A stretch of DNA of 64,000 nt from Escherichia coli. GTDB taxonomy: Bacteria > Pseudomonadota > Gammaproteobacteria > Enterobacterales > Enterobacteriaceae. Within the stretch, counting starts at the first letter, position 1, and every line of letters starts with the position of its first letter. The translations under genes and the position numbers were made by a program. Of this stretch, positions 62,788 to 62,905 are shown one piece after another. The stretch lies in NCBI RefSeq assembly GCF_003334405.1, contig NZ_QOWM01000014.1; one strand, written 5' to 3'. The notes under the pieces are model-generated. The model searched no databases. It worked only from the letters and a program-made list of their open reading frames with translations, and was not told where the DNA came from.

Positions 62788-62905
62788 CCTGCACGCTCCT
62801 AATTCTTTGACCGAGCTAGTTATGGCGCGGAGTATTAGTTACGCTTGACAGAGTGTAAAACAAAACATTTAAATCATAACGACAAATAATTTTGCGGAGA
62901 GCACT

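Follow-up and report, generated by a model that had tools for sequence, protein, structure and literature searches.

The closest described system is MaoP/maoS of Escherichia coli K-12, in which the Ori region owes its macrodomain properties to the two components together (Valens, Thiel and Boccard 2016; PMC5023128). There, hdfR and yifE (maoP) are transcribed divergently from either side of a 118-bp intergenic region, which is needed in cis and has an effect on both sides over hundreds of kilobases. Successive narrowing confined the cis determinant to 30 central nucleotides of this region and finally to the 17-nt sequence CTAATACTCCGCGCCAT, named maoS and described as a single site, while yifE/maoP is needed and able to act in trans. 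An ectopic copy of the 17-mer alone limits the mobility of a nearby marker, and on excised DNA rings markers are constrained only when maoS is on the ring. Deletion of hdfR results in tighter constraint, and deletion of yifB has no effect (PMC5023128). The study contains neither ChIP nor gel-shift data, so that direct binding of MaoP to maoS was not demonstrated there. A follow-up paper reports that Ori interactions are not extended when a second maoS is placed in the non-structured right region, and still terms the maoS mechanism unknown; in the literature that we searched, including the years after 2017, neither MaoP-maoS binding nor a mechanism was described in any paper that we found. One review (PMC6389857) asserts as fact that MaoP recognizes maoS. 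The same review takes MaoP for the AAA+ protein YifB, confusing the 112-aa DUF413 protein YifE with its neighbor.

Two further systems bear comparison. MatP/matS of the Ter region resembles MaoP/maoS in combining a short site with a small dedicated protein, the outcome being a region of about 1 Mb with restricted mobility and insulation. The matS site is palindromic and its binding by MatP has been characterized structurally, whereas a scan for repeats and palindromes detected no dyad symmetry in maoS. Moreover, matS occurs as 23 sites across Ter with MatP binding shown, while maoS is one site and a candidate MaoP target. Both MaoP and MatP are members of a protein group for which co-evolution with Dam has been reported (PMC5023128). 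The second system, ParB/parS, shares with maoS an origin-proximal cis site with a long-range effect. Tracking or loop extrusion from maoS was raised by the authors of the original study, in which enterobacteria are described as having no chromosomal parABS (PMC5023128). ParB/parS differs, however, in its spreading, nucleotide-dependent clamp, and condensin loading, none of which is known for MaoP.

The DNA analyzed here is a 64-kb stretch from E. coli (the window), in which the interval from 61.5 to 64 kb displays the gene order yifB (+), maoP (-), hdfR (+), and two tRNA genes. The maoP (yifE) gene, at 62449-62787 on the minus strand, is an open reading frame of 112 aa with the DUF413 domain (PF04219) and scores 253.6 bits against the NCBIfam equivalog NF008251, above the cutoff of 181; the trans-acting partner of maoS is thus encoded intact. 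Divergent from it, hdfR (62906-63745, plus strand; 279 aa, GTG start) encodes a LysR-type regulator scoring 534.7 bits against NF002946 (cutoff, 240). The original prediction had named a 118-bp divergent gap between the two genes as the place where maoS should lie, and the open reading frame coordinates confirm a gap of this length at 62788-62905. Alignment to the published maoS, which had been proposed as a check, returned CTAATACTCCGCGCCAT at 17 of 17 positions at 62822-62838, inside the gap and on the maoP (minus) strand, 35 to 51 nt 5' of the maoP ATG. This is its one place in the 64-kb window, even with up to 3 mismatches permitted, a threshold at which shuffled controls average 0.19 matches.

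A coincidental match or a dead copy has a practically negligible probability, given the 17/17 identity at the published location and a sequence identical to that of MG1655. Coincidence is further refuted by the chance expectation of an exact 17-mer in 64 kb on both strands, which by our own arithmetic is about 7e-6, and by the extreme purifying selection on the site described below. The K-12 MG1655 genome is 100% identical to an 801-bp stretch spanning the locus, with the RefSeq labels yifB, maoP, and hdfR, and nothing differs from the K-12 system (PMC5023128) in the 17 bp, the 118-bp context, or the flanking genes yifB, maoP, and hdfR. We are therefore highly confident that 62822-62838 (minus strand) is maoS, with its published cis role. 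This is the same site as in MaoP/maoS of E. coli K-12, and its placement here is textbook knowledge; the original prediction, which had labeled it as established and of low interest, was apt in both respects. The value of placing maoS is one of annotation, since the RefSeq records shown carry no feature under the maoP-hdfR gap. What the present comparison would add, as we infer below, is an overlap of maoS with a predicted maoP core promoter and the conservation of a core, ATACTCCGC, upstream of maoP outside Enterobacterales.

No known RNA family was detected in the gap at 62788-62905, and a search of the 118 bp for repeats and palindromes gave nothing relevant; the only hits above the RNA family threshold were the two tRNA genes at the window end, 63844-63916 and 63928-64000 (minus strand). 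The MG1655 annotation at that place is tRNA-Trp and tRNA-Asp, a pair that in MG1655 stands at the distal end of an rRNA operon. Assemblies often end just past hdfR, and the rRNA operon is probably the breakpoint.

The 801-bp stretch was found in 5,426 of 5,426 complete E. coli genomes. Identity of the 118-bp gap is 99% or higher throughout this set (5426/5426); for the flanking 801 bp, by contrast, 1,528 genomes fall at 95 to 99% identity. The number of copies per genome has a median of 1 for the 118-bp gap across these 5,426 genomes, the 17-mer itself having been scanned in the 64-kb window. Beyond E. coli, a search with MaoP using one genome per species recovered 432 relatives, of which the best 80 were used; these comprise Enterobacteriaceae together with Erwinia and Winslowiella, with protein identity of at least 89%. 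In the analysis of intergenic conservation that the original prediction had suggested, the 17-mer is exact in 79 of these 80 other species, occurring once in each, on the maoP strand and about 51 to 35 nt before the ATG. Silvania confinis is the sole exception, with one substitution. Invariant positions are few in maoP itself across these 81 sequences, at 5% of third-codon positions and 1 of 28 four-fold degenerate sites, which indicates that the gap is under very strong purifying selection.

Near-invariance extends past maoS to a block of about 70 nt in the 81 sequences. The longest run in the gap with at most one variant is the 19-mer CTAATACTCCGCGCCATAA, i.e., maoS plus AA (62820-62838, minus strand); in a comparison of six Enterobacterales sequences (five families), no other invariant run is as long, and GCGCCATAA is likewise invariant in all six. 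With Serratia, Morganella, and Leminorella added, synteny and a gap of 116 to 119 bp are kept while the flanks diverge. Conservation of the 17-mer thus supports its function, as judged from the alignments.

A consensus scan predicts a single sigma-70-like site on the maoP strand, TTTACA-17-AATACT, which agrees with the consensus at 9 of 12 positions in a scan that is not above chance (1 match versus 0.8 expected from shuffles). The predicted -35 element TTTACA lies at 62854-62859 (minus strand) with a T-tract before it, and the predicted -10 element AATACT, also called in Leminorella, lies at 62831-62836 (minus strand), within maoS. The 17-mer would accordingly be laid out as CT, the -10 AATACT, a discriminator CCGCGCC, and AT, and transcription of maoP would likely start at about 62823-62824, so that the 5' leader would measure about 36 nt and include the Shine-Dalgarno sequence AGGAG (62796-62800, minus strand), which is invariant in the alignments. 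On these grounds maoS probably overlaps the maoP core promoter, covering its -10 element, GC-rich discriminator, and start site.

The opposite strand carries a candidate hdfR promoter, with a -35 element TTGACA at 62845-62850 (plus strand), 6 bp from maoS and within the conserved run CTCTGTCAAGC, and, after an 18-nt spacer, a -10 element TTAAAT at 62869-62874 (plus strand) within the conserved run TGATTTAAAT. In Leminorella (locus L084) the scan calls both promoters, that of hdfR being TTGCCA-18-TATAAT with 11 of 12 consensus positions. The two predicted promoters would be interleaved back-to-back (62845-62874 on the plus strand and 62831-62859 on the minus strand), the predicted hdfR -35 falling inside the maoP spacer and the predicted maoP -35 inside the hdfR spacer, so that RNA polymerase at one should exclude the other. 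We also observe a conserved box with partial dyad symmetry at 62874-62884, which reads TCGTTATGA on the maoP strand and TCGTTACGA in other lineages (pattern, TCGTTAYGA). Located between hdfR and the maoP -35, it is kept from E. coli to Oceanospirillales-like lineages, with a copy at about 1903-1915 of locus L087, and may, with low confidence, be a candidate HdfR operator.

The predicted maoP promoter resembles sigma-70 promoters of the rrnB P1 type, sharing AATACT-CCGCGCC-A, placed 17 nt past TTTACA, and a T-rich tract upstream; the resemblance to an rrnB P1-type GC-rich discriminator is a lead. A promoter that needs negative supercoiling to melt, as would be expected with a GC-rich discriminator, should lose expression on relaxation. 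Peter et al. 2004 list yifE (b3764) among supercoiling-sensitive genes (PMC545778, supplement file 3), its log ratios on chromosome relaxation being mostly negative, to about -3.8. This fall, a further likeness to the rrnB P1 type, is the behavior associated with a GC-rich discriminator and lends indirect support to the promoter overlap. We found no ppGpp/DksA data or mapped start for maoP, and there is no yifE, maoP, or hdfR entry among the transcription starts in the supplements of SMRT-Cappable-seq, Shigella M90T, Romero 2014, and Kim 2012.

Proteins with the DUF413 domain reach well past Enterobacterales (513 clusters at 50% identity; E-value, ≤0.001), and the loci of distant maoP relatives retain part of the site. 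In Gallaecimonas (MaoP identity, 46%), TTTTGTTTTACC is followed after 15 nt by CTAATACTCCGaCCcga, which agrees with maoS at 13 of 17 positions, the first 11 being exact. Venatoribacter (41%) displays TTTTGTTTTACC and then ATACTCCGCCC, and in Marinobacterium (43%) TTGTAC occupies the -35 position, the distance to ATACTCCGCGC being unchanged. The arrangement of TTTTGTTTTAC, 19 nt, and ATACTCCGC upstream of maoP is kept in Gallaecimonas and Venatoribacter, and in all three genera ATACTC starts 19 nt past TTTTAC or TTGTAC, as in E. coli. The divergent LysR genes of Venatoribacter and Marinobacterium exceed the HdfR equivalog cutoff (253 and 240.3 versus 240 bits). The scan made no maoP promoter call in three distant loci (L087, L090, and L091), where our own count gives 8 of 12 consensus positions.

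The similarity of the distant loci is confined to a core of 9 to 11 nt at the promoter position. An ungapped search of these loci with the full 17-mer performed no better outside Enterobacterales than shuffled controls, which identifies the promoter-like core ATACTCCGC as the ancient part of maoS. The right half, GCGCCAT(AA), does not vary among the sampled Enterobacterales but is variable in the distant loci. From these comparisons, we infer that the core ATACTCCGC, at a fixed spacing from TTTTGTTTTAC and beside a divergent hdfR-like gene, also lies upstream of maoP in distant gammaproteobacteria whose MaoP identity is 41 to 46%. The comparison hence divides maoS into an ancient promoter-like core and an Enterobacterales-invariant right half, a division that could guide mutagenesis, start-site mapping, and assays of binding and could help explain how hundreds of kilobases come under the constraint of a single 17-bp site.

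Metagenomic sequences display the same arrangement. A scan with the pattern TTTTGTTTTACC-N18-ATACTCCG returned 22 places (L096-L117), 20 of which have a DUF413 open reading frame 5 to 102 nt downstream (hmmsearch E-values, 1e-33 to 1e-44) as well as a divergent HdfR-like gene before the pattern, with 40 to 64% identity. The base right after the pattern is C in 22 of 22 places, and a box TTCGTTACGATAAG, the metagenomic form of the TCGTTAYGA box and outside the search pattern, is conserved upstream of the T-tract in these loci. The other two matches are one AT-rich sequence without a DUF413 open reading frame and look like chance.

The motif is absent in Endozoicomonas (MaoP identity, 38%) and in Pasteurella multocida (58%), where dsbA is upstream, and Gilliamella (66%) has lost hdfR and carries a degenerate TTTACA-16-TATAAT-TCTCGCCC. 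The loci of Pasteurella and Gilliamella indicate that the cis site is not universal among maoP carriers. In the former (L088, 1944-2000), maoP is located 57 nt downstream of dsbA, with neither hdfR nor a maoS-like sequence. In the latter (L089, 1-341), two tRNA genes near-identical to the pair at the end of the window are found upstream of the degenerate promoter, and hdfR is missing.

Outside Enterobacterales, the maoP homolog is followed on the same strand by genes for RimB-like (PF05618) and/or RimK proteins rather than by yifB (L087, 2341-2781; L091, 1886-3256; L090, 1921-2796). These neighbors hint at a link of DUF413 to ribosomal protein S6 modification or translation.

No solved homolog of MaoP was found, and in a fold comparison MaoP (DUF413) was without detectable structural similarity to any solved fold. 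An RNA interactome screen in E. coli captured YifE/MaoP, with a crosslinking-dependent signal in the PNK assay (PMC10201417), and the capture and the signal together show that MaoP binds RNA in vivo.

In our view the most likely mechanism, with a probability slightly better than even, is that MaoP or a MaoP-dependent complex has one recruitment site, which coincides with the maoP core promoter. MaoP or a complex containing it would be recruited at the duplex maoS site and from there would spread, track, or load something, while occupancy of maoS would exert feedback on the transcription of maoP and affect hdfR by cross-talk. Recruitment, the promoter overlap, and the autoregulation of maoP through maoS would each be part of this mechanism. 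Against it we count the crosslinking of YifE to RNA, the lack of a solved MaoP homolog, and the second maoS that did not extend Ori interactions. The main rival, to which we give a modest but real chance, holds that the 17-mer is conserved as the maoP core promoter and that the cis effect arises via RNA polymerase, the open complex, or local supercoiling, with MaoP acting on RNA polymerase or nascent RNA and not as a maoS-binding protein. It would account for the position of maoS over the predicted -10 element, discriminator, and start, and for the retention in distant lineages of precisely the promoter-like part, ATACTCCGC at its fixed TTTTGTTTTAC spacing. The supercoiling sensitivity of yifE, the RNA crosslinking of YifE in vivo, and a MaoP without a recognizable DNA-binding fold also agree with it. 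However, the ectopic 17-mer sufficed without a -35 element, and it has no TG extension that could allow a -35-independent promoter. Discriminators, moreover, are not normally invariant across an order, yet GCGCCATAA is invariant in the six Enterobacterales sequences, and the start site on which the argument leans is itself a prediction. In a more specific form, maoS would be the melting region (-10, discriminator, and start site) of an ancient, hdfR-paired maoP promoter older than Enterobacterales, at which MaoP would act via the nascent transcript, RNA polymerase, or the open complex. We consider this form rather improbable; if it is true, the Ori macrodomain would be nucleated by a transcription-linked event and not by a site-specific DNA-binding protein.

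It is also conceivable, though very improbable, that the 17-mer is an operator of the LysR-type protein HdfR and that its dependence on MaoP is indirect. Deletion of hdfR does shift marker mobility, in the opposite direction, and an hdfR-like gene stands divergent to maoP even in distant lineages, with two such genes passing the HdfR NCBIfam cutoff. Nevertheless, hdfR is dispensable and its deletion tightens the constraint, and a LysR operator would take the form of T-N11-A or an interrupted dyad about 55 to 70 nt before the start, whereas maoS has no dyad symmetry and sits at the predicted -10 to +1 and not at about -65. Gilliamella, in addition, retains its degenerate promoter without hdfR. 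With hdfR dispensable and a better candidate available in the TCGTTAYGA box at 62874-62884, which is conserved independently of maoS, an HdfR operator at maoS is unlikely, and recruitment of MaoP at maoS stays our preferred reading.

With regard to variation in maoP itself, an IS2 insertion in yifE pre-existed in a culture of a BW25113-derived Keio uxaC knockout. Within a day it rose to 31 to 48% of the population in two morbidostat reactors, and it was without effect on triclosan resistance (PMC8209735).

Matches in phage and plasmid collections gave no sign of mobile spread of maoS. Phage copies were considered and rejected, since the three IMG/VR matches contain the same chromosomal region, two at 99% and one at 83% identity. 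Plasmid copies were likewise rejected: all 16 PLSDB matches are non-mobilizable, and several of those listed are chromosome-sized or about 94 kb, which suggests mislabeled chromosomal DNA. In a few E. coli genomes the 118-bp gap occurs at two places, one place being on a plasmid record. Finally, two IMG/VR contigs (L093, 56-2996; L094, 6522-9462) match the window at 61060-64000, and similarity stops at 61060, within yifB (comM). Those strains may thus carry an integrated element within yifB, some 1.8 kb away from maoS.
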